A stretch of DNA of 63,283 bases, counting the filler, from Stramenopiles sp. TOSAG23-3 (lineage: Eukaryota): assembly GCA_900128585.1 (NCBI GenBank). It is 10 parts of 10 records of this genome, joined end to end, with 100 filler letters (N's around TTAATTAATTAA, not from the genome) between each part and the next. Parts side by side here need not be neighbours in the genome. Positions count along the whole stretch, not along the records: positions 38,120 to 44,340 come from LT643358.1; 9 more parts are not named here. The stretch is one strand, 5' to 3'. Both the position numbers and the translations under genes were made by a program. Below the pieces are notes generated by a model that did no database searches, was not told the origin of the DNA, and saw only the letters and a list, made by a program, of their open reading frames with translations. Below are positions 6,260-63,283 of the stretch, piece after piece. Position 1 is the stretch's first letter, and every line of letters starts with the position of its first letter.

Positions 6260-6359
6260 NNNNNNNNNNNNNNNNNNNNNNNNNNNNNNNNNNNNNNNNN
6301 NNNTTAATTAATTAANNNNNNNNNNNNNNNNNNNNNNNNNNNNNNNNNNNNNNNNNNNN
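6260..6359. other. Artificial contig linker N44-TTAATTAATTAA-N44
   Basis: Identical 100-bp spacer occurs nine times; its core has stops in all six frames. Confidence 0.98.
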
Positions 6360-9185: not shown

Positions 9186-9218
9186 AAACAAGAAAATTGG
9201 CTGTTGTTATTTAAGTAA
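9186..9218 (+). terminator. Conserved ~30-bp element, copy antisense to the adjacent gene
   Basis: AAACAAGAAAATTGGCTGTTGTTATTTAAGTAA (one extra GTT), ~95 bp from the stop at 9314. Confidence 0.45.
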
Positions 9219-28056: not shown

Positions 28057-28077
28057 ATAACAGCCAATTTTCTTGTT
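28057..28077 (-). terminator. Conserved post-stop element, core copy
   Basis: ATAACAGCCAATTTTCTTGTT, 47 bp downstream of the sulfotransferase stop. Confidence 0.45.
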
Positions 28078-28124
28078 AAATTTACCTCTTGTGCTTAACA
28101 AAACAAGTGCTTCTGTCCCGACAT

Positions 28125-29867: not shown

Positions 29868-30598
29868 TATCCAACCACAAAATTCAAAAATTCAAAAACA
29901 AAAGTTTCGTTCTCCCCAGCCTAGCCTCCACACCGTATCAATACGGAGTGGTCCAACAGACGGATGGACGAGGGAGGGGTTGGAACGGACAACCCGTGGT
30001 TATTTCCGAAACCCTTTCGCTATAAACAATATTGATCCTCCTAAAAGAATGTAAACGGAGCGGAATCATATACGGATTCCCAGATTCCCAAAGAAAAAGA
30101 AAACAAATCAATTAATCAGGTCAAGGATGTTAATGTGTAGTAATATCTTGATAAATGCGTTACATAATACAATACGATAATTAATTATTATTATTTTTGT
30201 ATTATTTTTTTAATATTTTTATTATATTATTCGTCTTCTTCTTCTCTCTGTTGTTGTGAGTGACTGAAGGTAATAATAATAATATATATTAATACGTAGT
30301 ATAATAATTAATATAGTCGTCTAATAGAACGACTAACAGAAAAGAGAAGAAGAAGAAGAAAAGAACAAAAAAAATGATGCGTCGTATTTTTAATACAGTA
30401 CTGTACAGTATTTTAAAAAATAAAAAAAGTTATTATATGGCATAACATATTAATATAATAGTGTCAATAATTGTTTTATAGTACATTATATAGTAGGGTA
30501 ATATAATAGCTAAATATTTGGAAAAAGGCACTGTACCCGGAAGGAAAATATTATTTTCTTTTTCTAATAAATTGTTTGTTACCACCTGCATTTTAAGA

Positions 30599-31781: not shown

Positions 31782-32799
31782 ATGATAATCAACATTTTCT
31801 TTAACGCACAATTTTGCTTTTTATCTCTCCCCCCCCCATCACTGTGTCGTGTTATTTGGCCAAATTAAGGTAAGAATACCCCATCCATATCACCAAGACG
31901 ACATTTCTTATGTTTTTATACTAGTCTAATATAACTCACATACTCGTACATCTGCAATCAGCTCATTAGTATAAATAATTGTATTCTTGTATTATATAAT
32001 CTACCTATTGTATTTTTCTCTAATTTAAAGTTGATCCTCTCTCTCCTCCTCCTTTCGTTTTCTTTCTTTTTTTCCTTTTTTTTTTTCAGGAAGTAATGAT
32101 TTGTTTCCCTCGTGTTATTTATTATAAGACCTACTACTGTTATGTTGTTATATTTTATTCATATTTATTTCTTAATTTATAAAATTATGAAACGATCTTC
32201 TATTTTTAGCAAATATAAACTCCAACAAAAAATGTTCGTTTCATTTCACATATTTCGCTTCCATCGATGCCTTTGTTGTTTTTTCTTTTGGCTGCTGTTC
32301 TCGCTGCTTCTATATAAAATGAATTGTTGTAACGAATGATAATTATAGCGACACAAATATGAAGCATTCGTTATACCGGTTTAATTCTGTTTTTATCTTG
32401 TGTTACTCTTTTATAATACTGTACTATTGGTATATTTCATCCATAGAACTGTTTCAGTTTATTACATTATTATGGAGAAAAATGTCTTCGTGGCTTTCCG
32501 ATGATTAAAAACTTTTTTCCCATTGTGTGTCATTGTATTATAAAAGAGAATGATGGAAGGTGGTAGGCGATAGGCGATAGGCGATAGGCGGCGGTGGCAC
32601 GCGATGAAGGATAATGCAATCAATCCGTTTAGATGTACCGTATCAATCAATCCAACTATCCGAGTGATCCCTTATTGAAATTACATAATATTTGTTCATT
32701 ACGAGAGTAGTTTTCTGACCATCCGGAAACCCCATATATTCGTTTGAAATTTTTCTTCCTTTTGAGCCACATACCTTGTAGCCACGAATTTAAATTTCC

Positions 32800-35700
32800 A
32801 TGAGTAAGGTCACGCCCGTAGCTCCAGGGCAGGAAATTGTGCCCCATGACGACTTAAAAGACAATGAGCATAACTACGACTTGGCGGAGCGAAAGAGCGC
32901 GAGGGCGAAGGTGAGGATTCTTTGCGAAGAGCCAAATTCGTCCAAATTAGCCGAAGTCTACCACACGGTCTTTTCGCTCATTATTGTTGTCAGTATTTGC
33001 TGTTACATGTTTTCCTCTTTGAACGATGCCGGCAAGGCGGACCCGAAGAACTTTGCACCAGAGACCTACAAGGCTTTAGAGGTTTCGTTCACGGTCTTGT
33101 TTACGATAGACCTAATCGTCCGCGGCCTTACTGCGGACACTTGCATCCGACGGCGGAAACATTTGCGAAAGAACGAGGAGCCGCACCCGCCGTTCCTTTT
33201 GGACGTCCTGAACCTGTTCGATCTGCTGTCGGTCCTTCCGCTGCCAATCGAGGAAGTGTTCTCAACCACCCCGGGCCTGGAAGCGACCGTGAGTGCAGCA
33301 GACTTGAAGCTGCTTGGGGTATTTCGAGTCATGCGCGTCTTTAAAATCGCCCGGCACTTCGACGGGACAAGGGTCCTAGCGACCACGCTGAAGAGGAGTG
33401 TCAAGCCCCTGGTCGTTTCGATCTTTATGCTCGTCGCCTTCGGCTGCATTGTAGCCGGGCTTCTCTTCTTCTTTGAGCCGTGTTATTCGACTTCTTGCGT
33501 CCTCCGCGACTGCTACAATACTGGGTACTACATTGCGATTACGCTGACGACGGTCGGCTACGGGGACCAGATCCCCACCACGGTGATGGGACGAATGATC
33601 GGCGTGTTCTGTATGCTGATCGGGTCCTTCTACATGGCCATGCCCCTTGCCGTTATTGGGAGCAGGTTCGAAGAAGCGTTCCAAGAGCGAGAGAAAGAAA
33701 AGGCCGCGCTCAGCGAGGAGTACGAGAAACTGGTCCTTCGGTCTTTGCAGGGGGTGACCCGCCGCCAGCGAAGGGATCGGATCTGTCGGTTGGGGTACCA
33801 AGTGGCCGAGTCCCTGGACGAGCTGCAGGACAACATCAACGACCTGGATGGCTCCGTCTCGACAAAGAAGAAGATGTTCGATACGTTGCACACTCGGTTG
33901 CTGCAGTTTAGTATGGACCTTCGCGTCCTCTTCAAGCTGAAGGCCCCCATAAGCCTGACCGCTTCGACGGGGAAACCAGACGTGGATTCGTTCTGGGACG
34001 CCGACCTGTACACTGGGGACGACATGAGCTTGGAGGATGTTGGCGTCGACAAGTTGGAAGATATCCACCGCGAGCACAGGCTCTACTACGAGGAAATTAT
34101 GGAACAGCTCGACAATGCCCGCAACAAGAAAAGCATTCGCTCAAAAATTTGGCTACTCATGGAAGTCAAAGACTCCTCGAAGTGGGCCAGGCGGTTGCAC
34201 AACCTTCGCTTGCTCGTAACGGCGCTGAGTATCCTGGTTTGCTTTGCCGAGACCATGCCAGAAATGAACGACTTTGGAGAGGAATCCCGCGTATGCTCTC
34301 AAGTCGTGGGGTACTACTGTGAAAGAAACATTTCCACTCCAATCGCTCCGGCCGTCTTCGATGACGACCAAGAGGCGCTGAACAAACAAAATAACCGAGG
34401 GTGCTTCCCCTCAACTGACATGTACATGGTGAACCATGTCAATGCGTACTTGAAGGCCAATGGCGATAATCTGATTGAACCATATGGAGGATGCATGGTG
34501 GAGGATCTCAACAAACCGTCCGACTGCAAATTTCCCTCCCCAGGCTTCACTTGCAGCCAACCGGACGTTCCCGAAGGAAACAGTACCGTCGACAAAGCGA
34601 ACTATGTGCTTGCGATGTACTACGGAAGGGGCCTGAACGGCACCGAGAGTGTCGACGCGCTGTTTACAAAATGGTCACGCGAATATGCAATGTCAAGCGC
34701 TTTGTGGAGGATCCCGTTCGACCCTGCCCTAAGGCATCTCCAATACCCAGAAGACTTTACGGCAATATGCGAACGTATCCAGTGCACGGAAACGTACAAC
34801 CCCATCAACAAAGACTCGTTTGCCAATTACACGGACAAAGGGGAGTTCTTTATGCTGTGCGAGTCTTTCTTTGCGCTGTTTTTTATCATGGAACTGATAC
34901 TTCGTCTGTTTACGGTACGGAATTACCGTCATTGGTTATCGTTAAAAGCAAACATTGTGGACGTCGTCGCCATTATGACGACCGTGTTTGAAGTTCTTTA
35001 CGTGCCGTACGCGGCGGGGAAATTCACGTACGAAGTGTGGGGCAATGGTGCATTGTTTGACCCGGCAACCTTCCGCGTGTTTCGAGTACTGGTCTCTATC
35101 CGCTTCATAACGATGCAACGCCACTTCAGCGGCCTGCAAGTTATCATAAAGACGGTAGAGCTGGTCAAAGGGAAAATGGCTATACCGCTCTTCTTTCTCT
35201 TTATTTTCGTAACGCTCTTTGCTTCAGTGTTCAATTTCTTTGAGCGCGGTGCCCTGTACGAATGTCCAACTTTCAACCCCGACGTTGGAAGCGTTGATAA
35301 AAGCAAATGCACGCGTTGCACGCACGAGTCCCATGGGAAGTTACAGAAAGGATTTGGAAACAATAAAACCGTCACAAACCGCCTGTACGACGGATCGTGC
35401 TCACTAATGGTTGAAATTTACACCGGCGATGGGCCAGAAGTCTTAGCCCCTACTGCAATTGAAAATGTGTTCGACGCTTGGTGGACCACGGCTGTCACAA
35501 TGACAACCGTAGGATACGGTGGGAAATACCCGGTCAGGGCGGCGGGGAAATTTGTTGCAATTGCAGCGGCAATGGTTGGTACATTTTACTTGGCGATGCC
35601 TTTGACAATTATTGGTACACAGTTTTACGACGTGTACACCCAAGTCGAAGAGGAAGATGCGGAAGACGCTGTTAAGCGTGAAATGCTGTTCCATCCGGAA

Positions 35701-36036
35701 CGGTTTGAGAACGAGGACCAAGATGATGGAAACATCTCCGATGTTCAGAGAAAGGATTCATTTGGTCATGTAAGTCTGGGCACGCTTTCCAGAATCAAAA
35801 AAATGTCATTGAGGAGAAAAAAGAGAAACAAAGAAGATCTAACTGACGTTGAACGGAGACGGTGCGAAGAGTACGTCACCGCGGCCGGATCTGTCCGGGC
35901 CAGCGCAGAAGACCACTCGGTTGAGGAATTTGACAAATTTTTCAAACAACACATAAAGCTTATGGTAATAATCAGTGCAAAGTTCTACCGAGACTTCGAC
36001 CAAGGTGGCATCAAAATGATTGGCTCCCGTGACTAG
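32800..36036 (+). CDS. Two-repeat (2 x 6TM) voltage-gated potassium channel
   Basis: Two S4 segments (FRVMRVFKIARH; FRVFRVLVSIRFITMQRH), two filters TTVGYGD (33547-33567) and TTVGYGG (35503-35523), two S6 segments (AMPLAVIG; AMPLTIIG). Confidence 0.92.
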   Translation: MSKVTPVAPGQEIVPHDDLKDNEHNYDLAERKSARAKVRILCEEPNSSKLAEVYHTVFSLIIVVSICCYMFSSLNDAGKADPKNFAPETYKALEVSFTVLFTIDLIVRGLTADTCIRRRKHLRKNEEPHPPFLLDVLNLFDLLSVLPLPIEEVFSTTPGLEATVSAADLKLLGVFRVMRVFKIARHFDGTRVLATTLKRSVKPLVVSIFMLVAFGCIVAGLLFFFEPCYSTSCVLRDCYNTGYYIAITLTTVGYGDQIPTTVMGRMIGVFCMLIGSFYMAMPLAVIGSRFEEAFQEREKEKAALSEEYEKLVLRSLQGVTRRQRRDRICRLGYQVAESLDELQDNINDLDGSVSTKKKMFDTLHTRLLQFSMDLRVLFKLKAPISLTASTGKPDVDSFWDADLYTGDDMSLEDVGVDKLEDIHREHRLYYEEIMEQLDNARNKKSIRSKIWLLMEVKDSSKWARRLHNLRLLVTALSILVCFAETMPEMNDFGEESRVCSQVVGYYCERNISTPIAPAVFDDDQEALNKQNNRGCFPSTDMYMVNHVNAYLKANGDNLIEPYGGCMVEDLNKPSDCKFPSPGFTCSQPDVPEGNSTVDKANYVLAMYYGRGLNGTESVDALFTKWSREYAMSSALWRIPFDPALRHLQYPEDFTAICERIQCTETYNPINKDSFANYTDKGEFFMLCESFFALFFIMELILRLFTVRNYRHWLSLKANIVDVVAIMTTVFEVLYVPYAAGKFTYEVWGNGALFDPATFRVFRVLVSIRFITMQRHFSGLQVIIKTVELVKGKMAIPLFFLFIFVTLFASVFNFFERGALYECPTFNPDVGSVDKSKCTRCTHESHGKLQKGFGNNKTVTNRLYDGSCSLMVEIYTGDGPEVLAPTAIENVFDAWWTTAVTMTTVGYGGKYPVRAAGKFVAIAAAMVGTFYLAMPLTIIGTQFYDVYTQVEEEDAEDAVKREMLFHPERFENEDQDDGNISDVQRKDSFGHVSLGTLSRIKKMSLRRKKRNKEDLTDVERRRCEEYVTAAGSVRASAEDHSVEEFDKFFKQHIKLMVIISAKFYRDFDQGGIKMIGSRD

Positions 36037-36282
36037 AAGAAGAGAAGAGTAGGGAAGGTAACTTTTACCAATTCGTGACTGGGTTTTCATCAAAATTGGC
36101 GGTCTCATTTTTAAAAACAAACAAAAATATTAAAAAATAATTAATACATATATTATACTAACTTAATGCATAATTTTAGTTCAGCAAACTGTCTTAAGTA
36201 AGTTTTAAAAACCAATTTTTTGTTTTTAAAAAATGTACACACTAAGTTTACACTAAATTCTGACTTAATTTTAATTATACTT

Positions 36283-36308
36283 TTAAATAACAGCCACGTT
36301 TCTTGTTT
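36283..36308 (-). terminator. Conserved post-stop element, variant copy
   Basis: TTAAATAACAGCCACGTTTCTTGTTT, 38 bp downstream of the DRG stop. Confidence 0.45.
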
Positions 36309-36346
36309 AATTTATGACTAAAGGTCTGTTTTATGAATATGCGGTC

Positions 36347-43257: not shown

Positions 43258-43393
43258 AGAAATCCTTGTGTAACCAAAGCGAGCATTTCTTGGAGAGGTT
43301 GTGTATATACGGTCAAAACTAAATCAAAACGAGAATTTCTTTGAGCATAAATTGATCCCTTCACTTCATTGGGTACACACAAAAAAGTCTACA

Positions 43394-44110
43394 ATGGCGG
43401 CAGTAGTTTCTTCAGAGAAAAAGTTCCAGCTGTACTATTTTCCTCTGAAAGCAAAAGGGCTCGGCGTTGCCCTGATTGCTCAGTTTTCAGGTCTGCCATG
43501 GGATGGCCCCGCTTCATTAAACTATGATGTTAGAAAGAACTGGAAGGAGTTAAAATCAAGCGGCGACTGCGTGTTTGGGCAATTGCCTTACTTAAAGACC
43601 GCCCAAGGGGTTGGTATAAATCAGACCACAGCGATTGTACAATATATTTCCAAGCTTGCAGGCTCAACACTTGAGGGGGCGAACGAGGAAGACTGGATAA
43701 TGAACCAAATGCTTATTGCCGAAGCGGAAGATTTGTATACAGCTTTGCAAAAGTACCAACCGACCCTTTATGTTAGTTTGGGACGCCCTGATCGCTTCAA
43801 GGCTGACCTTGAAGGGCACAGATTTTACTGGGCGACCTGGGTTCCGAAACAATTTAAAATGGTTGAAGCGCTATTTCGGGGGAAACCGCATTTGACGACG
43901 ACAGGGTTTACTGCCGGGGAACTGCTTCTGTTTTCCTATGTGCATCAAATGGTGCTCGTTCAGCCTGCAGATATGCTAGAAGGATTTCCTGCATTGTCTT
44001 CCTGGTACAAAATTGTTCTCAACGATGAAAACACCCAAGCTGTGTTGAACGGCAAATCCAATTTTGGAAATTTGGAAAATTACTTTGTAAAAGTGGAGGG
44101 GGAGAACTAG
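43394..44110 (+). CDS. Glutathione S-transferase
   Basis: FQLYYFPLKAKG (Tyr-type N-terminus), FGQLPYL, INQTTAIVQYI, C-domain FTAGELLLF and FPALSSWY. First ATG at 43394. Confidence 0.88.
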   Translation: MAAVVSSEKKFQLYYFPLKAKGLGVALIAQFSGLPWDGPASLNYDVRKNWKELKSSGDCVFGQLPYLKTAQGVGINQTTAIVQYISKLAGSTLEGANEEDWIMNQMLIAEAEDLYTALQKYQPTLYVSLGRPDRFKADLEGHRFYWATWVPKQFKMVEALFRGKPHLTTTGFTAGELLLFSYVHQMVLVQPADMLEGFPALSSWYKIVLNDENTQAVLNGKSNFGNLENYFVKVEGEN

Positions 44111-44120
44111 CTAGTATTTT

Positions 44121-44150
44121 AAACAAGAAAATTGGCTGTTATTTAAGTAA
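44121..44150 (+). terminator. Conserved 30-bp post-stop element, consensus copy
   Basis: AAACAAGAAAATTGGCTGTTATTTAAGTAA, 10 bp after the GST stop; exact reverse complement of 45947-45976 on another contig. Confidence 0.55.
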
Positions 44151-44340
44151 TTTTTGTATTAAATTATCTTTGCTCTTTTGGTTTTACTAATCGATATATA
44201 CCCTTGTCACTTAGTCTTGACTATCATTCTCAGATTTATATTATGAGGAAGCTAAAATTTAATCTCTGAGTGAGATATCGGATGAGGACGTTAATGGACA
44301 AATGGAATCAAATCGTTCATTGGAAAATATATCATCCCCT

Positions 44341-44512: not shown

Positions 44513-45717
44513 AATGCCCAATAGTTTAACGGGTGCTTCGACGCCGCACCACCGCCCCAGGCGAAATCTTGCGGCGAAATCATTCTGGAAGAAAACGTGG
44601 CCGAGCCTGAAAGACCAAGGTTGGGATTACGATGGGAAGCGTTTTTTTTACCCGCCTGATGGTTACAAAGAGTACGTCCAAAAGCAAAGGCGCTCTGGAA
44701 AAGACGTAAAAGAATTCTTTGACGGGATTGCAGAAGTCGGGGAGTACGTTCGGCAGAACCCCGGGATAAATTTCGTCAAAGAGGAAGCGGTGGCGAAAGG
44801 TGTAAAGTCCGCGAGCGCGCAATCGGGAGGCGCCACGGAGGAAGAGCACAAAACGGCCTCCAACGAAGATTCCAAATCAATAGCAAAGGGGAAGGACTCA
44901 AAAAAGCCGGCCGCGGAGAACGAAAAAGGCGAGGCGGTAGTGCTGCGAACGCCGTGCAGCTCTCCAAAGGAAGAGCCCAGCGGCCCCGACCCAAAGACCG
45001 AATTTCGGCTGGCGGCGGCCTCTGGCCGTGGGTCCCCCCCCCTCCACCGTTAAAAAAGAAAGGAAGAAAGCCACGATCAAGCTGAGGCGGGTGAAACCTC
45101 CGCGACGAATGCACAGCCAGTCGCTGGACAGTGGCCCAAAGGTGTACATTTGCGACCGCTGCGGGCGGGATAACTTCATAAACGGCCATGCTCTCGGCGG
45201 GCACAAGAAATACTGCAGCAAGCCGGAGTACGACGAAGCGCGAGCACGCTCCAGCAATAGAGCGCAGCGCGCCATCGACGGGCGGCACAAGAGAAAACGC
45301 TCGTCCTCTTTCCCGGCGGAGGGTTCCTCCCAGAATGGCCTTGCTGGCCTCACCAGCAATAGTGTCAGTCGAACTTCCAGCAGCTCGTCCTCTGGATTCA
45401 ACCTGCAAGGCATCACGAACTCGATTCGTGACTTTGCGGACCGAGTGGACGATTTGGACGACATCGAACTGGACGAAGCGTTGAACACCAGCGATTTGTT
45501 TGAGCTGCAAGTGATCCAGACGGTGTTGCGGGAAGAACGCGCGCGCCTGACAGGGCGTTTGGCTGGCCTTGAAGCCGCAGAACCGCACGACCCAATCCCA
45601 TTAGCTGACATTTTTGACGACGTCCCCGGTGTCGAGGAACAAAAATCAGGGGAGGTGGACGACGAGTATGAAACGGAACTGGTCGGGACGGAATTGGCGA
45701 TGAGCCTGGGGTTTTGA
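44513..45717 (+). CDS. C2H2/C2HC zinc-finger protein, apparently one gene split by a frameshift in a C9 run (45034-45042)
   Basis: ORFs 44472-45053 and 45028-45717 fuse if one C is removed. Zinc finger YICDRCGRDNFINGHALGGHKKYC; N-terminal aromatic domain WPSLKDQGW...FYPPDG...FFDG. Confidence 0.7.
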
Positions 45718-46166: not shown

Positions 46167-48515
46167 CTACTTCTGCCCGTCCCAGCCATGCTTCGCAAAG
46201 TACGACTCCCATGTCTCATCGCACCTATGTGTCATTGTGCAGGCGTTACAGTTGACCAAGGGGCACGTAGCCCTTTCCCCGCCTTTTAACGCAATAAACC
46301 CTTTCACACGCTCCTCAACCCTGTCGGACGCTGCAAAGTACCTTCTCAAGAACGCTTCGATCGGCAAGTCCTTTTTAAAGCGGTAAAAGGACCCAGCCGC
46401 CGCGGCAGCGCGAGGGAAAATTACGGACAGAAAGTTGTGACCAAACAGGTCGTCCTGCTTGCGTTTGAACAGCCACCCGATGTGCCCTCCCCAAGTTGGT
46501 GCATGCCCTACACACTTATCGTGAGGGCAATACTCGTCGGTCCACATGGTCGTCTCCCCCCCGAGCAGAAACTTTGTGTCCACTCCGTCTTCTACTATGT
46601 CGGTCCACATGCAGTCTTGGAAGGAAATGTCCACCATATTGCAGGCAGTGCTCGTGTGGTCCAAGTAGAACTTGTCGTACTTGGAATAGATGATAGGAAT
46701 GCGATTCAAAGTGGCCCTGGTTGCGTTGCATTTGAGACTCCAGCACTGCACAATCGTTCTTGCACTCTTGCTCAGCGCGTTTAAGATTTCATACGCTTCG
46801 TTCCAAACAACTGGCGTTCTGCCATACACCTGACTGACTTCCTCTTGGATGGCCTTGGACAGGTGCCCAAAGTTCCCCTGGTTGCACGGGCCCTTGTTTT
46901 CCGTTTCGTCTCCGCCAATATGCACGATCTTTGCCTTTGGGAAAAATGAGAGCATTTCCTTCAGCAGGATCTTTACACTGCTCAAGGTTTTGTTTTCTTT
47001 GTCGTGAAAAAGCTGCCACTCCTTGTTGTCACAGAAGAGCATCTTGTCTTTGGACAGGCCAGAGAAACTGTGGGCGTGGCCGGGAATGTCGATTTCTGGG
47101 TAAACTGCGATGCCCCTTTGCTCTGCAAAATCATTAATTATTTTAAAATCAGCTTTGCTGTAGAACCGTTTTTTCTGGTTCAATTTTGGGAACGTTTCCG
47201 ATTTCCACCGAATGGCGACCCAATCGTTGAGGTGAAAGTGGAACGCGTTCATTTTTAACGACGCCATCCCTTCTAAAATTGCTAAAATGGTCGGGACCGG
47301 GACAAAGCGACGGCCAACGTCGACCAACAGGCCTCGGTGCGGGTACATCGGCCTGTCCCTGATTTTGAACGACGACGCGATGCAGTAACCGCGGGAGCAT
47401 ATTTGGGAAAGGGTCTCTATTCCCATCAAAAAGCCATTCGTTGTCCTGGCAGATAAATACATGGTGTCTTGGTCCCCCTTCAATTCAATGGCATACCCAT
47501 CGTCACTGCTGTTTTGGGCATCACCTTGTGGCGTCGTCTGGAGGCGAACCGACATCACGGAACGAGTGGCATTCGCTGAATCTGCACCCGACAGGATTCG
47601 AGCTTTGGCCCTTTCAAACGCTCGTTCGACTATGGTTTTGGAGATTTGATCTCCAGGGGCGTCAAACTCCAGGGCCAGGCTTTTGCTAACTGGTCGAGCC
47701 CCCCCCCTCCAATTGTCTATGCTTTCCGGAAGCGGCCAGATCAACTCTTCGTGGGCTTTCATCGGCTCCTTTTCTATCCTCCTCATCGCTTCTTTGAACT
47801 CCAGCTGGTTTCCCACATTTTTGTTGTACATTACGACCGACATTCCTGAAATCAGCCCGACTTTGTTATTTACCATCTTGTTCGCACCAGACTTTAGCCA
47901 GCAGGTCCCATCGGCATGCGTCCATGCTTCACACTTTGGATTCTGTACACATTTGCTGCAGCATTCGTTCGTTGTGGCAGTTTTCTCGCTGCCGACATCC
48001 ATGCCGGGGATATCCGCCTGCATAAAGTAATAGTACAACATGGGCGCATGGTTTGGAGCATTGCAAGAGACGGGTTTTTTCGCGTGGATGTCAACTTGGT
48101 CAACGGAAACGGACCGAGAGTCTATCGGGGTCGTTGCCAGCCGCGCCAGTTGCGGCAGCGGGGGTCCCGCCCATAACGGCTCCGCTGCTGCCTTTTCTCT
48201 GATCTTTTTCAGTTCGGAGCGAAGCTGTGGGTCGTCCTCAGGTGTTACGTCAAATATTTTATTGATCCCTTTCGCTGCCTCGGCGTGAAGATCCGCGGCC
48301 CCTTCCTCGCTTTTGCTAAAAAACACGTCGGAAAGGAAAAACAGAAGAACTGTGAAGGTTACCAGTGTGCTATACAATACTACTCTGTGTAGGAGAGGAA
48401 ACGTATCCTTTTTGTACTTATCCTCAGTAGCATACCCAGCTTCATCCGCTTCAGGGCGGGAGGACGTTACGTGCAACCGTGCACCCCCTTGACGCGGCAG
48501 ACGTGGCCTCATCAC
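46167..48515 (-). CDS. Type II membrane GH20 beta-N-acetylhexosaminidase with a PAN/apple domain
   Basis: N-terminal TM; PAN pattern ECCSKCVQNPKCEAWTH...CWLK; DRPMYPHRGLLVDVGRRF, PEIDIPGHA, catalytic HIGGDE, LGGETTMWTDE. Confidence 0.92.
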   Translation of the reverse strand: MMRPRLPRQGGARLHVTSSRPEADEAGYATEDKYKKDTFPLLHRVVLYSTLVTFTVLLFFLSDVFFSKSEEGAADLHAEAAKGINKIFDVTPEDDPQLRSELKKIREKAAAEPLWAGPPLPQLARLATTPIDSRSVSVDQVDIHAKKPVSCNAPNHAPMLYYYFMQADIPGMDVGSEKTATTNECCSKCVQNPKCEAWTHADGTCWLKSGANKMVNNKVGLISGMSVVMYNKNVGNQLEFKEAMRRIEKEPMKAHEELIWPLPESIDNWRGGARPVSKSLALEFDAPGDQISKTIVERAFERAKARILSGADSANATRSVMSVRLQTTPQGDAQNSSDDGYAIELKGDQDTMYLSARTTNGFLMGIETLSQICSRGYCIASSFKIRDRPMYPHRGLLVDVGRRFVPVPTILAILEGMASLKMNAFHFHLNDWVAIRWKSETFPKLNQKKRFYSKADFKIINDFAEQRGIAVYPEIDIPGHAHSFSGLSKDKMLFCDNKEWQLFHDKENKTLSSVKILLKEMLSFFPKAKIVHIGGDETENKGPCNQGNFGHLSKAIQEEVSQVYGRTPVVWNEAYEILNALSKSARTIVQCWSLKCNATRATLNRIPIIYSKYDKFYLDHTSTACNMVDISFQDCMWTDIVEDGVDTKFLLGGETTMWTDEYCPHDKCVGHAPTWGGHIGWLFKRKQDDLFGHNFLSVIFPRAAAAAGSFYRFKKDLPIEAFLRRYFAASDRVEERVKGFIALKGGERATCPLVNCNACTMTHRCDETWESYFAKHGWDGQK

Positions 48516-52344: not shown

Positions 52345-52423
52345 AAATAATCAGCCATTATTTTGTTTTCAACTAAGCGTACGTTATTTTAAAAATAATC
52401 AGCCATTATTTTGTTTTCAACTA
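52345..52423 (-). repeat. 31-bp direct repeat that is a degenerate form of the post-stop element
   Basis: AAATAATCAGCCATTATTTTGTTTTCAACTA at 52345-52375 and 52393-52423. Confidence 0.75.
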
Positions 52424-52517: not shown

Positions 52518-55500
52518 TTACATGTGGCTTATTTTCTGCACAAAACCCTTCCCCAAGAGCATTATTTCACCCAAGAGTTCTTCCTGATTGGGCACGCATG
52601 TCCCGCTGGTGGCGCTCTTGTTTTTCTTTTTGAATTGGTGGGAGGGGGTAGTGACGCGTGCGGTGCTCACCTTAAAGGGCTGCGGGGCAAATGCCTGCGC
52701 GTTCCATACTATTCCAACTTTATCTCCATGAAGTGCATTCCGAAAAAACAGGGCCAGGTGCCCAAAATGGGAGCGCAGCGTTTCAACGTACTGTGCGAAA
52801 GGGTCAAAACCGAACATCAGCGTCTCTAGAGAATCTTTGGTGATTAGATTTTTGTAAGTTCTCACGCGAAAACGTTTTCCAATGCGCTTGCTGCTGTCCT
52901 CCATCCCTTTGCGCTTTTGCCCCACACTCTGCTTTAGGCGCTTGACCAGCGCGCTTTCGTACGAAAGGCACTCTGGCCTTATCGAAATGACAGCGTCGTA
53001 ATCTTTCAAGGGGCAAGACGAGAAGACTTTCCTCCAGAATTTCCCAGAAGTGATGTTCCCGCTTCCGCGGACAGCCATGTTGTCTTGAATGCTCTTTACT
53101 GCCCCCTTTGCCAGGGTGGTTGCTCTTTTCATGCAGACGGCGTCGATCTGCCCGTTCAATAGCCACGAGGGGACCCATTCCTGCTCCCGGTCGTACGGCG
53201 CAATGACAAAGCAGGGGGTTGTGTCCTTCTTGGCGTTGCCCTTGCTGGCGGCCTGCAAAGTTTCAAACTGTTTTTCTATCCGCAGAACCTCTGCATCAGT
53301 AATTCTCCCGTCCAAGTTGACTATTAACGGCTCAAAGTCCCACGAAAAGGTCGCCAACAAGTCTAAAAACCGAATCAACCCAACAATGGCGGAGACAGGA
53401 GGCTGGTGGGGCCTGCAGGAAGGCTCAAGGAACAAGGACGCGACCATCAGCTCTACCGTTTCGCACGGAAATACGTCCGACAACATCTTCGAGTGCAACC
53501 ATCGCTTTGCTAACCTCGCAACTTGGCCGTACACGCCGTTCTTCATATGCACGTTGTGGATCAAATGGGTGTGAAGCCGCGTCGTCTCCGTCTTCAGGCG
53601 AAGGGCCCGTAGCCTAGTCTCCCCTTCTTTCTGCTCTATGAGGACCCTGTCTTCGTAAATGAATTTTCGCTTGCCGGCAATCACGACAGGGACAGGGGAG
53701 CACGCAATCTTTAGCAACTCTTGCTCTCGGTCGCAGACTAGGTTCAAACGAAACAAGTACCCTTCGAAGGCTACGTCCAGCCACTCCCGGTTGGCAACGC
53801 TTTTGATGTCGAGCTTTCGAAGCGTTTGCCCCAAGTTGCAAAGAAACGCAGTTTTGACCTTCTTGATCGCGCCCAGGTCGTCGGGCCAGCGACCGCTTGT
53901 TTCAATCGTCATTGCAACGTTATACGGGGATACTATTTTTGACGCGACGCCCTCGTCTTCCATCCCAGGTTCAACCCCGCCCAACAGTGGGTGCAGCACA
54001 GGAGGAATTTCGCGGGTGTATCTGCCGCCGGGGCCAGTAAAGTGCAGGCCGGTGACGCGCAAGGGGAGGGTGTCGATGGCCAGGAGGGAAATCGAAAGCT
54101 TGTCCAAGGTCTGCGTCAGCCTTTTAAACATGTCGTCCGGGCTCATCGATGCCCCACCCGGAGTGTCCAGCAGCTGATCCACTTGGTGAGACAGCGTTCG
54201 GATGTTGACGTCCGAATCCATCGTTCCCACGTACGCGGCCATGTGCCTGGCCAGGGCGTACTTCACTACGTCCCCAACAATTCGGTGCTCTCTGCCGCTT
54301 TTGCAAGCCCACAGCACTGCCTCGATAATGGAGCCATCTCGAAATCGACGAAGCTCCGACCGTTTCCCCCAAAAATTGCGAAACTGCTTCGCCTTGGCCG
54401 CGTCGTCTGCTGGCGGACCCTTGTCCAGCGTGCGCCGGAACGTCCCAGGGTTCAACAGCAGAGAAATTACGGCCGACCGGGCCGCAGGCTTTCCGCCGGA
54501 GACATCCCACATGTTCGACTCCCTGCTCGACCACTGCACGCGCACTAGCGTGACCCGGTCCCCGAGCGCTTGTACAAGAATATCGTTCATCAGTTGCAGC
54601 GTCTCTTGGGTCCATGGAGCATGCTCCGCCTCTGCTGGGGGGGAGGCAATGACGTACTGGTCGTACCGCTTCCAGAACCCTAGCGCCGAGCCAAGAAACA
54701 GCGGGTCGAACGAATTGACGGTCGACCCGTGGTCTTTCTTCAAACATTTCTGGGTTAGTTTAGCCTGGTGGCGAAGCTCGTGGTAGGCATCCAGGGACAC
54801 CCGCGAGGCAACGTTCAAGTAACCCGTGGAGTCCAGCAGGACGACGTCGTGGTGCGCTACGTGCGCGGCCAACAGCGCGGCAACACTGTTCGCGTTCGTG
54901 GACCCGTCTACGTTCGGGCTGTCACGAAGTATCATGCCCTCCTTCCCAAAATCGTTTTTAACAATGAAGTTTATGGTCTTGTTGAAGATCTGCTTCGCCG
55001 AGGAGTTTCGGTTCACCTGGTTCATATTGATAAGGTGGGCCACTAACAGAGACATGAGAAATCCATTGAACGAGTCGGGCGCGCCGGTCATTCCCCGTCG
55101 CCGCAGCCATATTTTAAACAGCTGACATGCTTGTATAAAGCCCTTGCTCTGCGACGCCGCTGCGTGCAGTATTTGCAGGTGGCGCTTCAAGTAAGCGTCT
55201 TCTAGGATGGTACAGTTGTACCGTGGGGTTGCTTTTCGCTGCGTCGTTCCTGCAGTGATTTTGTGGGCTTTTAAATTCCCTTTAGTCGGGCCCAGCTTGA
55301 TTTGGTCAAACTCGTCGGCAGCAATGACGGGGAATATTCTGATCTGAAAGCCTTTCGTCCGCTTGTCCTTCGAGTTCAATATCACCACGAGGATGGGCTT
55401 GGTATCGTTCCCTTCCCTGAACCCCCGAATCTTTACCTCGGAAAATGCCTTTTTGTCTTTCAGCAAAGCGTGCGCGATTGCGGACAAGTACAGCAGGCGC

Positions 55501-56300
55501 TTGTCGTGGTACCGGTAATCTAAAAAGTCTTTCGGGACAAAGCAGCTGCTGGGCATCTCGACGGCGACGTCAACGTTCAGACTTGGCTTTACGAGAGTGT
55601 GCAGAAGGTAGCTGCCGACCAGGTCCACCCGGGCGGGCTTCGCGAACGACAGGGTGACGGGCTTTGTGTGGCCATCGTGAAGCTTCCCCAGGCCGGTGCA
55701 CAGCTGCATGCAAGTGCTATCTTTGGTCACTTCTTGCGACGGCATCTTGTCAAACGCGTTTTTCAGGGCAAACAAGCACTGCTCTAAATCCGTCAGCCCG
55801 TCGTAGCTCAGGGACGCCCGCTTCAGGAGCGTCTTCAGTTCTAGCTCGTACATGTTCGCCTTGGCGACTATATCTGCCTGCCGCAGTTGTTGCATTTCGT
55901 CCCTGGTTGGGAGTGCGTACATTTTATCACGACCACTTGATTTTTTTGCCCCGGGTGCACTCTCCTGCTGGACTTTGGGCGCCGCGCCGTTCGCTTTCGA
56001 GTCTGCTTCCAAGTAGTACCCTAAACCGTCGTCATCGTTCTTGAACACATACCCCGCCCTCGGCCCGTCGAAGGAGCTTGAAGGAATAAAAAGCGGCTGT
56101 TCTTCACCCTCATCCCCCGAGTCCGAGTCCGAGTCCGACGACGAGCTGCCCGAAGACGAGCCTTTACTATCACTATCTTCCTGCATCTTTTCAATCGCAA
56201 ACACATTGGCGTCAACGACGGTCTCTTTTGGCACTTCTTCGGCTTGTTCTTCAGCAGGAACGGCCGTCGACCGGCCCGCTTTTCTCTTTTTTCGTGGCAT
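52518..56300 (-). CDS. NOL6: Nucleolar protein 6 / Utp22 (Nrap family)
   Basis: VGSYLL, DVAVEMP, KDFLDYRYHDKRLLYL, TPRYNCTILED, KGPPAD...FRNFWGKRSELRRFRDGSIIEAVLW, SGRWPDDLGAIKKVKTAF. First ATG (MPRKKRK) at 56300. Confidence 0.93.
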   Translation of the reverse strand: MPRKKRKAGRSTAVPAEEQAEEVPKETVVDANVFAIEKMQEDSDSKGSSSGSSSSDSDSDSGDEGEEQPLFIPSSSFDGPRAGYVFKNDDDGLGYYLEADSKANGAAPKVQQESAPGAKKSSGRDKMYALPTRDEMQQLRQADIVAKANMYELELKTLLKRASLSYDGLTDLEQCLFALKNAFDKMPSQEVTKDSTCMQLCTGLGKLHDGHTKPVTLSFAKPARVDLVGSYLLHTLVKPSLNVDVAVEMPSSCFVPKDFLDYRYHDKRLLYLSAIAHALLKDKKAFSEVKIRGFREGNDTKPILVVILNSKDKRTKGFQIRIFPVIAADEFDQIKLGPTKGNLKAHKITAGTTQRKATPRYNCTILEDAYLKRHLQILHAAASQSKGFIQACQLFKIWLRRRGMTGAPDSFNGFLMSLLVAHLINMNQVNRNSSAKQIFNKTINFIVKNDFGKEGMILRDSPNVDGSTNANSVAALLAAHVAHHDVVLLDSTGYLNVASRVSLDAYHELRHQAKLTQKCLKKDHGSTVNSFDPLFLGSALGFWKRYDQYVIASPPAEAEHAPWTQETLQLMNDILVQALGDRVTLVRVQWSSRESNMWDVSGGKPAARSAVISLLLNPGTFRRTLDKGPPADDAAKAKQFRNFWGKRSELRRFRDGSIIEAVLWACKSGREHRIVGDVVKYALARHMAAYVGTMDSDVNIRTLSHQVDQLLDTPGGASMSPDDMFKRLTQTLDKLSISLLAIDTLPLRVTGLHFTGPGGRYTREIPPVLHPLLGGVEPGMEDEGVASKIVSPYNVAMTIETSGRWPDDLGAIKKVKTAFLCNLGQTLRKLDIKSVANREWLDVAFEGYLFRLNLVCDREQELLKIACSPVPVVIAGKRKFIYEDRVLIEQKEGETRLRALRLKTETTRLHTHLIHNVHMKNGVYGQVARLAKRWLHSKMLSDVFPCETVELMVASLFLEPSCRPHQPPVSAIVGLIRFLDLLATFSWDFEPLIVNLDGRITDAEVLRIEKQFETLQAASKGNAKKDTTPCFVIAPYDREQEWVPSWLLNGQIDAVCMKRATTLAKGAVKSIQDNMAVRGSGNITSGKFWRKVFSSCPLKDYDAVISIRPECLSYESALVKRLKQSVGQKRKGMEDSSKRIGKRFRVRTYKNLITKDSLETLMFGFDPFAQYVETLRSHFGHLALFFRNALHGDKVGIVWNAQAFAPQPFKVSTARVTTPSHQFKKKNKSATSGTCVPNQEELLGEIMLLGKGFVQKISHM

Positions 56301-56976
56301 AGGTTGTAGTGAGGAAGGAAGGTAGGAAAGCAACAGGCAAAACACTTGATAGAAAAACAAAAGCAATATTCAACTCATGCCTTGTTATATAAATGAACTT
56401 CAATGCATGTCCTTGGTCTTTCTTTGCTTCTTTTTGTTTTCTCTCTATTGGATTCATAAAATGATTGTAAAATACAAAAAAGATTGCCAATAATATAAAA
56501 TTAAAGTCAAAAAATAATATAATAATAATAATAATCGATGATATAAAAAAATGATGAACGAAGAAGAATGATCACCACATCATCAACAATAATTAATTCC
56601 CTTCTTCTCCTTTGCTCTGTTTATGGTGTGTTGTTGTTGTTATTGGACCTCCTCATCATCTTCTTCTTTTTCTTCTTCTCTTCGCACATTTTTTAATCAT
56701 TTTATTAAACTATGCAAACTGTTCGTAGTTGTTTACTACTACGGCGTATACGATATTTTGATAGCTACATAGAGACTAATAAATTTACTATTATTTCTAT
56801 GTATTAAATTATGGCTAATTATGGCTCTAATTATAATACTCTCGTACTTCATGCTGTGAATATATTATTTTAAACGACAATTGTATATGACATTATATAT
56901 AATAATAGCCTTACAATAAAAATATAAAAATATAGTAGATTCATCGCTCTCATCTCAGCTCCTCTCTGTGCTGTGC

Positions 56977-57076
56977 NNNNNNNNNNNNNNNNNNNNNNNN
57001 NNNNNNNNNNNNNNNNNNNNTTAATTAATTAANNNNNNNNNNNNNNNNNNNNNNNNNNNNNNNNNNNNNNNNNNNN
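56977..57076. other. Artificial contig linker
   Basis: N44-TTAATTAATTAA-N44. Confidence 0.98.
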
Positions 57077-57087
57077 CGGCTACACCA

Positions 57088-59817: not shown

Positions 59818-59851
59818 AAAGCAAAAAACAAAAGCTTTAAATTTTAAAAAC

Positions 59852-59882
59852 AAACAAAAAAAATTGGCTGTTGTTGTTATTT
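59852..59882 (+). terminator. Post-stop element, degenerate copy
   Basis: AAACAAAAAAAATTGGCTGTTGTTGTTATTT, ~35 bp after the stop at 59817. Confidence 0.4.
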
Positions 59883-60095
59883 ATTAATATAAGTAATTAA
59901 AATTTAGCTTTCTCATACCCTAATCCTAACTTCAGTGAATCAGCGCCTTTTGTCCATTAAAGGTTTACATGTTTACATTTTACATTCCCCTTCAAGCAGA
60001 ACTTATCTTTGCTCTTGTTGTGGGTTGTGGTTTAACTGATCAATCTTGTTGAAATACAACATTTTTTGTTTAATATAATCTCCTAGAAATTTTAA

Positions 60096-60126
60096 TTACT
60101 CTAAATAACAGAGCCAATTTGTGTTT
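60096..60126 (-). terminator. Post-stop element, degenerate copy
   Basis: TTACTCTAAATAACAGAGCCAATTTGTGTTT, ~70 bp after the minus-strand stop at 60199. Confidence 0.4.
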
Positions 60127-62475: not shown

Positions 62476-63283
62476 CCCCCTTTGGTCAAGAGTCGGAGTT
62501 CTCTCCCGCACGCACAACGGGGGGGGGGGCAGAATGGCCGGTCTAGCAGAAGAAGAAATACAGTTTAAACGGTGCCTGGTCGTCGTCAAAATGAACAAGC
62601 GATCGTTTCTCCGATGTTTCCTTATAATAAATATTTCCTCTCCTCCTCCTCCAAGCCCCCTTTTTTTCCATCATCAATTCCATTTCTTCAATATATACAA
62701 ACAAATATATCTTCTTTCTCAAAATTATTTTTTTAGTTCCGTTACTTTTACATATTCTTCTTATTTATTTTACGCGATTTTTTTGGGAATAATCGTGAAA
62801 ACAAAGTAGAGCAGAAGAAGAAGAAGAAGAGAATCCATAAGGTAATTAATAATTGAATTATTTTATATTTAATTATTAGTTTTTCATTATTAAAATAGAA
62901 CAGAAAACGAAGAAAAGTGTCAACAATGTCTTCTATCTTCTATATCATTTATATACGCTTTATCCTATAAGTATACTTATGTTCTTCTTTCTTTCTCTTT
63001 TTTCCTAAATGATTTTACTTTCGTTTCACTCGTATTTACCGGTTTACCGATTTCCCAAAACGAAATTAATAGTTCTATACATAAGTATAGGATTGGTATT
63101 GTAATAATATATCAAAGATGTTTTGAGAAATATGAACGAAGAAATAGGAAGTTATAACGAATAGTTCATAAAATGAGAATGTAAGGATTTTATGTATTTT
63201 GGATAACAATTTGTTCATTTTGGAATAACTTGTTTGTCGATTTGCTATACTAAATAGATGTACAATTATATTGGTTTTTTATT

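Follow-up and report, generated by a model that had tools for sequence, protein, structure and literature searches.

Is the 30-mer that lies just past the stop codon of a gene at positions 44121-44150 a signal that ends transcripts, or was it left there by something mobile? The window, that is the whole stretch of 63,283 nt under analysis, consists of 10 contigs of 6207-6259 bp each from Stramenopiles sp. TOSAG23-3 (GenBank assembly GCA_900128585.1), joined by N/TTAATTAATTAA spacers. The motif, termed W1 (AAACAAGAAAATTGGCTGTTATTTAAGTAA), had been presented in a preliminary description as a strand-oriented element marking gene 3' ends across unrelated contigs. The analysis reported here points to another origin. 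In reverse complement, W1 most likely corresponds to the very 3' terminus of a family of non-LTR retrotransposons from an uncultured marine protist, and it is probably not a purpose-built stop signal.

Copies of W1 in the window

The search reproduces the two exact copies given in the preliminary description, at 44121-44150 (+) and 45947-45976 (-). When up to 3 mismatches are allowed, the full 30-mer has 3 matches in the window, the third at 3396 (-), versus 0.00 expected from 100 dinucleotide shuffles. The 20-nt core has 4 matches versus 0.02 expected. The near-exact and degenerate copies at the other seven positions were recognized by reading, and in total contigs 1, 2, 5, 6, 7, 8, 9 and 10 (8 of 10) carry W1, as had been claimed. 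Distances from stop codons were measured on a long-ORF map and agree with the range first described, 10-190 nt for all 10 copies. The copies and the related fragments in the window are as follows.

3396..3425 (-): W1 with 2 mismatches, in a tandem spacer, 94 nt past the stop of ORF 3520..6303 (-)
9186..9218 (+): W1 with a GTT insertion, in a tandem spacer, 95 nt from the stop of ORF 9314..12166 (-), to which it is antisense
28057..28080 (-): short W1, TTTAACAAGAAAATTGGCTGTTAT only, in a convergent spacer, 38 nt past the stop of the sulfotransferase-like ORF 28125..29891 (-)
36193..36233 (-): second, degenerate W1-like sequence in the same spacer as the 36283 copy, with 6 mismatches to the 21-nt core
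36283..36312 (-): W1 variant AAACAAGAAACGTGGCTGTTATTTAA, differing at 2-3 bases, 34 nt past the stop of the DRG gene
44117..44150 (+): exact W1, 10 nt past the stop of the GST-like ORF 43274..44110
44164..44235 (+): fragment of module W2b (TTATCTTTGCTCTTTTGGTTTTACTAATCGAT...CTCAGAT), by reading against type A copies
44245..44340 (+): by reading, a mosaic piece from this repeat family, reaching the contig end
45947..45976 (-): exact W1, 190 nt past the stop of ORF 46167..48515 (-)
52345..52374 (-): degenerate W1-like sequence (GAAAACAAAATAATGGCTGATTATTT), first of two tandem units, 143 nt past the stop of the NOL6 ORF 52518..56369 (-)
52393..52422 (-): degenerate W1-like sequence, second tandem unit, 95 nt past the stop of the same NOL6 ORF
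59845..59932 (+): degenerate W1 (AAAAACAAACAAAAAAAATTGGCTGTTGTTGTTATTTA) followed by module W3 (TAAGTAATTAAAATTTAGCTTTCTCATACCCTAATCCTAACTT), about 30 nt past the stop of ORF 57025..59817
60096..60125 (-): degenerate W1, 73 nt past the stop of ORF 60199..62670 (-)

The conserved core of W1 is about 26 nt long and sharply bounded (AAAAACAAGAAAATTGGCTGTTATTT), and copies occur in the window roughly once every 6-10 kb. In the copy at 28057 (-) the 21-nt core is exact and the 3' part differs; a near-identical version of this stretch is found at metagenome locus L013. The W1 part at 59852 (+) lies 34 nt past the stop, and the spacer with the 45947 copy is convergent, with ORF 44941..45717 (+) as the partner. 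ORF 46167..48515 (-) is the one named GH20 in the preliminary description. The fragments that follow the 44121 copy belong to a longer repeat: W2b comes after W1 and module W2 at other loci, and the mosaic at 44245..44340 consists of the reverse complement of the W3 start fused to a piece of an ORF tail (..SLSEISDED..).

The strand orientation holds in part. In the window, the copy at 9186 alone runs antisense to the gene end closest to it, but the orientation rule is not strict in the larger data set, and its appearance in the window carries less weight because 7 of the 10 copies lie in convergent spacers, where either strand is sense to one gene. Of the 21 window gene ends with enough flank, 8 have a sense W1 no more than 200 nt away. 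Folding W1 as RNA gives nothing beyond shuffles (z -0.25 to +0.53), and neither the window nor the 5 repeat-rich loci searched contain an Rfam family above threshold. The possibility that W1 is a promoter (inverted CCAAT plus the TATA-like TATTTAAG) was set aside; positions 36141-36292, downstream of the tag, are without RNA-contig cover, which proves nothing. The best named protein matches are 65-70% for DRG (various lineages) and 30% for NOL6 (an oomycete), with no close named relative.

The repeat, its insertion sites and its open reading frame

A scan of public metagenomes with the exact 19-mer yields at least 120 further loci. Five viral-contig matches and metagenome loci L054, L061, L081 and L100 are flanked by unrelated coding sequence and were discarded as chance matches; with these 9 loci left out, there are 149 usable W1 instances among the matches listed. 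The few overlapping locus pairs compared show no allelic presence or absence of a tag, and the 1354 nt by which L103 and L113 differ are within coding sequence.

W1 is the fixed end of a dispersed repeat whose copies are variably shortened on the far side. The copies share the W1 terminus and reach variably far along a single order, from W1 to W2/W2b or W3 and then to a reverse-complemented ORF tail. Among the matches listed, modules within 500 nt of W1 lie downstream of it and in the same orientation in 37 of 44 cases for W2, 21 of 22 for W3 and 12 of 14 for W2b. Along the longest copy, L023, BLAST depth reaches 91 at W1, drops to 13-24 in the following 250 nt and to 3-7 as far as about 850 nt, and past that is 0. 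The copies of the ORF begin at residues 150, 158, 358, 432, 520, 555, 641, 685, 710 and 740 of protein P0175. About 54% of the copies among the matches listed have no repeated sequence beyond 40 nt downstream. Inserts with a flanking duplication of at least 9 nt are 19-408 nt long, and the most frequent length is 22-25 nt (11/49). No full-length element was found at the loci examined: upstream of the ORF tail, the reading frames belong to unrelated host genes, and in the divergent L057 copy no ORF precedes about residue 150. A multicopy 0.9-kb segment (L065, L098, L002 and L096), met in the same search, is noncoding.

Many copies are bracketed by direct duplications, which begin immediately ahead of the short run of A's adjoining W1. 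For the 114 copies assessed among the matches listed, duplications of at least 9 nt occur in 49 (mean of 14.3 in 100 shuffled pairings), of at least 10 nt in 36 (mean 6.1), of at least 11 nt in 29 (mean 2.6, maximum 8) and of at least 12 nt in 18 (mean 1.4), leaving 65 with no duplication of at least 9 nt. Duplication length varies from 9 to 15 nt, and even copies of 22-25 nt are flanked in this way. At L016, L062, L120, L029, L084 and L057, for example, the second repeat copy sits at the point where similarity to the long element ends. Some flanking repeats are instead made by local tandem duplication of tag plus flank (L022, L099 and L010), and for the 10 window copies there are only mismatched candidate duplications and no clean, exact one. 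A second family, W4, behaves alike, with duplications of at least 10 nt in 5 of 22 copies versus 0.93 in shuffles.

The 49 reconstructed sites have A at position -1 in 38 cases, and their last 3 nt are nearly all A or T (C or G in at most 3 at -3, in 1 at -2 and in 0 at -1); they show no conserved target sequence beyond this A/T-rich end. The junction consists of 0-7 A's on the W1 strand, which corresponds to oligo(T/U) in the sense of the element, and no poly(A) or simple-repeat 3' tail of the L1 type is found in the W1 family. An oligo(U) RNA end in place of poly(A) is unusual and counts against a retroelement, while a poly(A) tail is not required by R2-type elements.

Target-primed reverse transcription would produce such copies. 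A nick would yield a DNA 3' end finishing in A's, and this end would pair with a U-rich RNA end (...CUUG(U)n); the 3' UTR of the element, written as DNA, would be expected to end in ...TTAAATAACAGCCAATTTTCTTG(T)n. The cDNA synthesized from the paired A-ending primer would be the W1 strand. Synthesis would mostly abort after 20-60 nt, most commonly after 22-25 nt, and would leave a tiny tag bracketed by a duplication.

The ORF tail of the repeat is the end of P0175, a protein of 776 aa in a cluster of 116 sequences. Its C-terminal part models, with moderate scores, as a Cys/His knuckle followed by a restriction-like endonuclease (RLE) fold. The blocks kept in the family alignment are C-x-C...C...H...C, PHN, Q(A/P)DG, DVHF and K..KY, and these Cys/His and acidic/lysine blocks are presumably RLE motifs. 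In the full model, residues 350-560 make up the confidently modeled core. A Foldseek search with this model places R2 proteins at ranks 1-5 (best 9nl2_A, E 3.7e-3, probability 0.99), with E-values that are above 0.001. VIA-align ranks R2Tg 9dou_A first of 48,161 chains (Z 8.9, rmsd 3.7, 173 aligned; model residues 314-607 against chain residues 1208-1390) and R2Bm 8ibw_C second (Z 8.4). The domain-only model is poorer (pLDDT 61.5); its structural search puts a Prp8 endonuclease-like domain first (Z 6.1), PA endonucleases among the top and R2Bm at rank 6 (Z 4.9), and Foldseek places Bse634I on top. PD-(D/E)xK nucleases lead all four fold searches, with moderate scores (Z 4.9-8.9). Since R2 proteins appear to be the nearest solved relatives, as top matches of the full model and lower-ranked ones of the domain alone, the family is probably a LINE of the R2 superfamily (RLE type).

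Sequence-based searches add little to this assignment. A sequence profile search of the PDB returns no R2 protein and nothing relevant, and Pfam has no family in P0175, P0178 or P0254 beyond a sub-threshold zf-primase match. The ESM Atlas offers no more than a lead, zf-RVT (0.85), seen in 17% of cluster members. All 265 relatives in the representative library are short fragments, and a crude reverse transcriptase (RT) regex finds no match across about 850 kb. The only RT encountered is a Ty3/gypsy-type pol in window contig 7.

A mobile-element footprint at gene ends was among the origins offered in the preliminary description. It is now backed by the target-site duplications, the nested copies with a common terminus and the attached putative endonuclease ORF.

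Placement at gene ends and rival explanations

Strong copies among the matches listed number 104 in 49.7 kb of convergent spacers (2.09 per kb; 68 of 99 spacers occupied), 29 in 76.4 kb of tandem spacers (0.38 per kb; 21 of 111) and 1 in 47.9 kb of divergent spacers (0.02 per kb; 1 of 54), densities that are ascertained because the motif itself was used to gather the loci, with freedom from bias only in spacers beyond the seeded one. The count inside called genes is 0/202, and the chi-square for the distribution of strong copies is 163. The three spacer types are alike in AT content (0.66-0.68) and in TAAAA density. The originally described association with gene 3' ends is real and strong in the metagenome loci, and it reflects either targeting of termination zones or selective removal elsewhere. 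The preliminary description had also named the end of a known, randomly inserted MITE or SINE as an outcome that would speak against its proposal. W1 does appear to be the end of a retroelement, but one that is inserted or retained in a markedly non-random way. A SINE would have a head derived from tRNA, 7SL or 5S with a Pol III promoter; Rfam gives no family above threshold for the window and the 5 repeat-rich loci, and the longer copies bear an ORF instead.

Orientation is mixed. Tandem spacers hold 12 sense and 17 antisense copies. All exact copies among the matches listed show a modest sense bias (87 to 45, p 0.0003), and recent copies with intact duplications are divided 19 sense to 15 antisense; a bias present overall but not in recent copies fits orientation-dependent retention. 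Of 350 3' flanks, taken from the loci and the window contigs, about 85 have W1 7-mers in sense and about 51 in antisense. Among 62 tag-bearing convergent spacers, 39 have a single copy, 15 have same-strand tandems and 8 have a facing pair (+-, -+-, +-- or ++--+), with the +- pair in 6 or 7 of the 62. In L098, one 88-nt spacer places a single tag between two stops.

RNA contigs bear on the DRG tag. One of them, from the DRG gene (X6 record 18), ends at 36293 inside the tag with no loose end, and another from a second study (X7 record 25), which has the canonical W1 allele, ends within 2 nt of 36293. The contigs of the convergent partner gene stop at least 150 nt before the tag. Such ends in one copy are a weak hint that some copies may also serve as 3'-end sites. 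Like the sense bias of the exact copies, they suggest that orientation has a bearing on retention or function, a point that counts against the retrotransposon explanation.

It is conceivable, although on balance rather unlikely, that many W1 tags are derived from the retroelement and also act as compact poly(A)/termination sites, in which an A-rich stretch precedes a cleavage point near UUGGC and a U-rich stretch follows it, and that such sites may work both ways for convergent pairs. This idea supplements the retrotransposon explanation and does not replace it. The ends of the DRG contigs from two studies hint weakly at such a role, but they come from one locus and from assembled contigs of RNA runs, which can break at repeats, and the partner-gene contigs stop short of the tag. 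The sense bias of the exact copies also favors it, though recent ones do not show it (19 to 15), as does the single copy in most convergent spacers (39 of 62), to be set against a sense motif at only 8 of 21 window gene ends, no stable RNA fold and no Rfam family. A stronger version, which we regard as unlikely, holds that an R2-like lineage actively homes to termination zones, chiefly convergent ones, and that the host has adopted its 25-40 nt tags as possibly bidirectional poly(A)/termination cassettes. If this were true, a mobile element would have written a large share of the 3'-end signals in a compact protist genome.

The other proposals in the preliminary description were a dedicated cleavage/termination signal, a terminator or insulator bound by protein, and a site in the 3' UTR for an RNA-binding factor. 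None of them is supported as the way in which W1 arose, because a sense W1 is found at so few window gene ends (8 of 21), because neither the tandem-spacer copies (12 sense, 17 antisense) nor the recent copies (19 to 15) follow the gene strand, and because most convergent spacers have one copy and not one per gene. In the form of an immobile, host-encoded motif kept identical by selection, with longer repeats containing it by chance, this explanation is very improbable. It draws on the strong confinement to gene 3' flanks, the sharp bounds of the roughly 26-nt core, the RNA contigs that end in one copy and the 54% or so of copies without repeated sequence past 40 nt downstream, but it is opposed by target-site duplications around copies of only 22-25 nt, by a truncation series of a single longer element with a putative endonuclease ORF, by both orientations in tandem spacers and by the lack of W1 at most gene ends. 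A terminal inverted repeat of a MITE or DNA transposon, with convergent W1 pairs as the two ends of cut-and-paste elements, could account for the order W1-W2...rcW2-rcW1 at some loci and for the 10-nt direct repeat that flanks the L045 pair. Facing pairs in only 8 of 62 tag-bearing convergent spacers, a variable far end and duplications of no fixed length (9-15 nt) leave this reading highly improbable. Yeast origin consensus elements favor convergent spacers, and the enrichment of W1 in such spacers whatever its strand would suit a protein-binding site that acts on DNA apart from transcripts, such as a boundary element or the consensus of a replication origin. Given the duplications, the truncation series and a density of roughly one copy every 6-10 kb in the window, such a site is scarcely credible.

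Relation to known elements

A literature search of limited breadth found no LINE that targets 3' ends and no long 3' motif in protists. The RLE-type elements compared with the retrotransposon family proposed here are R2, R4/Dong, NeSL, CRE, HERO and Utopia; the EhLINEs of Entamoeba are of the RLE type as well. The W1 family resembles the R2 superfamily in its modeled Cys/His knuckle and PD-(D/E)xK fold, with R2 on top for the full model, and in its 5'-truncated copies, fixed 3' end, flanking duplications and absence of a poly(A) tail. Most RLE-type elements are described as having one repetitive target each, such as rRNA genes, microsatellites or snRNA genes (PMC4640811), and R2-like elements without site specificity have also been reported (PMC7650587). 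The W1 family differs from the superfamily in having no conserved target beyond an A/T-rich end, in inserting into the 3' flanks of unrelated protein-coding genes, mostly as pieces of 20-60 nt, and in being known here without its RT and N-terminal parts.

Retroposon pieces that cluster at gene 3' ends have their nearest precedent in the SIDERs of Leishmania, which are about 0.5 kb long and have a signature at their 5' end. SIDER1 and SIDER2 are described as numerous short retroposon remnants, nearly all in 3' UTRs and reused for post-transcriptional control, and as extinct elements recognized by a 79-bp signature common to trypanosomatid retroposons (PMC2323293). In contrast, W1 tags are 3'-anchored, often 25-60 nt long and in many cases flanked by intact duplications, and their function is putative. 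Dictyostelium TRE5-A and yeast Ty1/Ty3 are reported as retroelements of compact genomes that occupy a narrow, harmless class of sites by tRNA genes (PMC5391098, PMC5006619, PMC3159450). The W1 family likewise occupies a narrow gene-adjacent class of sites in a compact genome, but theirs are RNA polymerase III genes reached via TFIIIB/C, whereas W1 sites are Pol II gene 3' flanks that may owe their tags to targeting or to selection. EhLINE/EhSINE elements are described as non-LTR elements without a single specific target in the A+T-rich, gene-dense genome of the protist Entamoeba, with an EhLINE1 endonuclease that prefers GCATT (PMC1635306). The W1 family would also be of non-LTR type in an A+T-rich, gene-dense protist and without a single target, but neither GCATT nor any other motif is seen at its sites, and the EhLINE abstract mentions no restriction to 3' flanks (PMC1635306).

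Like poly(A) signals and bidirectional terminators, W1 lies just past stops, reads as A-rich, then GC-containing, then U-rich in either direction (by reading) and has RNA contigs ending in one of its copies. Unlike them, it is much longer, far more uniform, flanked by insertion duplications, in sense at 8 of 21 window gene ends only and not strand-specific.

RLE-type LINEs are described as a model of site-specific retrotransposition and are under development as gene-insertion tools. The W1 family would depart from them in lacking a sequence-specific target, in its confinement to gene 3' flanks and in consisting mostly of tags of 25-60 nt, and it would offer a natural case of safe-site choice in gene-dense genomes and of abortive reverse transcription shaping intergenic DNA. 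Should some tags determine where mRNAs end, the W1 family would join the Leishmania SIDERs as a second retroposon family recycled at gene 3' ends. In the annotation of marine eukaryote MAGs, W1 would be a handy marker of lineage and of gene ends, to be masked as a repeat and not taken as a regulatory signal.

W1 in the window and its longer copies

The window holds ten contigs of 6207-6259 bp each, joined by artificial spacers, which carry long ORFs in the standard code, almost without introns, and A+T-rich spacers between genes. The best named match is 65-70% identical for DRG, among scattered lineages, and 30% identical for NOL6, from an oomycete; neither search returned a close named relative, and near-identical and 57-90% identical proteins occur in environmental data only. 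The host is an uncultured marine eukaryote. A (AAAG)n-type microsatellite begins contig 2 (6360-6440). A Ty3/gypsy-type LTR retrotransposon pol ORF (38167-42426, +; Pfam RVT_1, RT_RNaseH, Integrase_H2C2 and rve) bears no relation to the tags.

The preliminary description of W1, a 30-mer near gene ends, is a real finding by its matches, shuffled controls and placement. W1 is exact at 44121 (+) and 45947 (-), as claimed, and has 2 mismatches at 3396 (-), while shuffled sequences give none. Likewise, W1 is near-exact at 9186, 28057 and 36283, and degenerate yet recognisable at 52345, 52393, 59852 and 60096.

The 19-nt core of W1 was then scanned against public metagenome contigs and matches at least 120 stretches, of which most belong to two WGS sets and to several marine metagenomes. 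Five viral-contig matches and four metagenome loci were dropped as chance matches because their flanks are unrelated coding sequence, and 149 instances were kept from the at least 120 matched stretches. In the viral contigs L121-L125 and in loci L061 and L081, the 19-mer occurs once each, always in the same conserved stretch of coding sequence (..CCAGGCCCCAAGAAAATTGGCTGTTATTATACTTACAG..) from large viral contigs.

Sequence 5' of W1 is unique except for a short A-run (TTAAAAA). On the 3' side, about half of the copies continue into more repeated sequence, which forms two alternative series of modules, W1-W2-W2b and W1-W3, both leading to a coding-like tail, present as its reverse complement. 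Modules keep a fixed order and orientation relative to W1 (W2 in 37/44, W3 in 21/22 and W2b in 12/14). Measured along the longest copy, Blast depth is highest at W1 (91), drops to 13-24 and then to 3-7, and reaches 0 at ~850 nt. W1 copies are a nested set with one common end.

Module W3 carries a telomere-like stretch, CCCTAATCCTAAC (TTAGGATTAGGG in the element sense), at 59915-59932 in the window and at many loci. At five metagenome loci (L029, L093, L108, L110 and L120), partial tags of either orientation lie jumbled together in clusters, with back-to-back palindromic pairs among them; in these clusters a 20-nt reverse tag lies inside another copy, flanked by the 5-nt repeat AATGT, and tags appear to insert into tags. 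Loci L103 and L113 are 99.9% identical apart from a 1354-nt coding-like stretch (L103 2997-4350) missing from L113, a deletion or assembly difference unrelated to the tags.

Insertion signatures and the element protein

Long exact direct repeats between the 30 nt before and the 400 nt after W1 are far commoner than in shuffled pairings. The test counts repeats adjoining the A-run and leaves out 5 near-duplicate loci and copies too near a locus end.

Direct repeats flanking W1 in 114 copies, with the mean of 100 shuffled pairings
At least 9 nt: 49/114 observed, shuffled mean 14.3
At least 10 nt: 36/114 observed, shuffled mean 6.1
At least 11 nt: 29/114 observed, shuffled mean 2.6 (maximum 8)
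At least 12 nt: 18/114 observed, shuffled mean 1.4

The excess at 11 nt and above confirms the target-site duplications that the preliminary description had proposed to seek. No repeat of at least 9 nt was found in 65/114 copies, and the ten window copies have flanking repeats only as mismatched candidates. The first repeat stops 0-7 nt 5' of CAAG, and the second starts where similarity to the long element ends. Duplications are 9-15 nt long and inserts 19-408 nt, with a mode of 22-25 nt (11/49). The insertion site has a final A in 38/49 and no other conserved feature. At locus L016 the duplication GAGGTAAAATA includes the upstream gene's stop codon, and at L022, L099 and L010 the flanking repeats are a local tandem duplication of tag and flank.

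The combination of one constant end, a far end that varies and duplications of unequal length points to target-primed reverse transcription, and the same three features argue against a cut-and-paste element. Of the four readings offered initially, a mobile element at gene ends is backed by the duplications and nested copies and is most likely the origin of W1; those invoking a dedicated signal are not supported as its origin.

P0175, a multicopy protein of 776 aa from a cluster of 116 sequences, has the coding-like tail as its C-terminus. Its copies in the loci begin at many different residues, forming a 5'-truncation ladder. Pfam gives nothing above threshold for P0175, and its 265 relatives among 1.84 billion representative proteins are all short environmental fragments. 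Overall confidence of the AlphaFold model is low (pLDDT 52.6), with a confident stretch at residues 350-560. With the full model, the five best Foldseek matches are R2 retrotransposon proteins (best E 3.7e-3, probability 0.99), followed by type II restriction enzymes and influenza PA endonuclease. The independent VIA-align search of 48,161 chains places R2Tg first (Z 8.9 over 173 residues, model 314-607 versus chain 1208-1390), R2Bm second (Z 8.4) and the Prp8 endonuclease-like domain next. A domain-only model (pLDDT 61.5) scores more weakly, with Prp8 En-like at Z 6.1, PA endonuclease at 5.1 and R2Bm at rank 6 (Z 4.9), and its top Foldseek match is Bse634I. A sequence profile searched against the PDB found no R2. 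Across the aligned family, a C-x-C...C...H...C block and acidic/lysine blocks are retained, and we take these to be RLE motifs. We conclude that P0175 ends in a predicted knuckle and restriction-like endonuclease, and that an R2-superfamily LINE is the likely element class. The reverse transcriptase part of the element was sought and not found.

Placement and orientation at gene ends

All ten window copies lie 10-190 nt after the stop codon of a long ORF, as first described. For the larger set, genes were called by codon usage and strong W1 copies were counted.

Strong W1 copies by spacer type; because W1 itself was used to gather the loci, absolute densities are inflated, but the contrast from one spacer type to another is unaffected
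Convergent spacers: 104 copies, 49.7 kb, 2.09 per kb, copy in 68/99 spacers
Tandem spacers: 29 copies, 76.4 kb, 0.38 per kb, copy in 21/111 spacers
Divergent spacers: 1 copy, 47.9 kb, 0.02 per kb, copy in 1/54 spacers
Within called genes: 0/202

These densities bear out the proposed 3'-end enrichment. Placement tested against spacer length gives a chi-square of 163, the picture is unchanged with ORF-length gene calls, and tandem-spacer copies lie near the 3' end of the upstream gene. Site supply does not explain the placement, since convergent, tandem and divergent spacers have similar A+T content and a similar density of TAAAA. The restriction to 3' flanks may come from targeting or from selection.

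The accompanying strand rule holds only in part. In the window 9/10 copies are sense to the nearest gene end, which is weaker evidence than it appears because 7/10 lie in convergent-gene spacers, where a copy is always sense to one gene. W1 is not strictly strand-oriented in the larger set, given 12 sense and 17 antisense copies in tandem spacers, 28/44 single copies in convergent spacers closer to the gene they are sense to (p 0.10), 19 sense and 15 antisense among copies with duplications of at least 10 nt (0 in divergent spacers), and 87 sense and 45 antisense among all exact copies (p 0.0003). A modest sense excess in all copies that is absent in recent-looking ones fits orientation-dependent retention. 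Tag-bearing convergent spacers mostly hold a single copy or same-strand tandems, with facing-pair patterns in 8/62.

Within the paper collection searched, neither a description of the W1 motif nor a report of a LINE confined to protein-coding 3' flanks turned up. Most RLE-type LINEs are described as tied to a single repetitive target (PMC4640811); in the W1 family no target is conserved. Dictyostelium TRE5-A and yeast Ty are described as using safe sites in dense genomes at tRNA genes, unlike the W1 tags in 3' flanks of protein-coding genes. Entamoeba EhLINE/EhSINE are presented as lacking targeted insertion, with an endonuclease preferring GCATT (PMC1635306). The nearest precedent is the Leishmania SIDERs (PMC2323293): these short remnants of retroposons are described as lying almost entirely within 3' UTRs and as having been put to use in mRNA control.

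RNA ends and a second repeat family

Contig 6 is matched by 20 public runs from nine studies, 12 of them recorded as RNA. Among assembled contigs on this one window contig, a DRG RNA contig ends at 36293 without a loose end, and one of another study (run X7), carrying the canonical W1 allele, ends at most 2 nt from there. Both end mid-tag, after ..AAAATTGG(C). Some tags may act as 3'-end sites, although the tool rated this pattern a weak hint and contigs may be broken at repeats during assembly. Neither a stable RNA fold nor an Rfam family was found.

Across 208 nt in the 3' region of DRG, the X7 contig and the window are identical. Within the tag (36293-36307) they differ, the RNA contig reading canonical W1 (AAAAACAAGAAAATTG) and the window AAACAAGAAACGTGG; strain differences cluster in the repeat, and either ectopic conversion or the assembly itself could account for this. 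At 36091-36118 (+), ~55 nt past the stop of ORF 32794..36036, there is a weakly W1-like stretch (CAAAATTGGCGGTCTCATTTTTAAAAAC). Among the RNA contigs of this ORF, one ends at 36101 and others at 36121-36140, which may be chance.

A second repeat family, W4, has the form (A)n-CAAATTATATAGTATGTTTTAAGACTCTCA... and occurs at 24 more places in the loci besides the window:
1848-1940 (-): two tandem W4 copies, downstream of ORF 2045..2863 (-)

Duplications of at least 10 nt flank 5/22 W4 copies, against 0.93 in shuffles. Like W1, W4 starts with an A-run and CAA and has alternative downstream extensions and flanking duplications.
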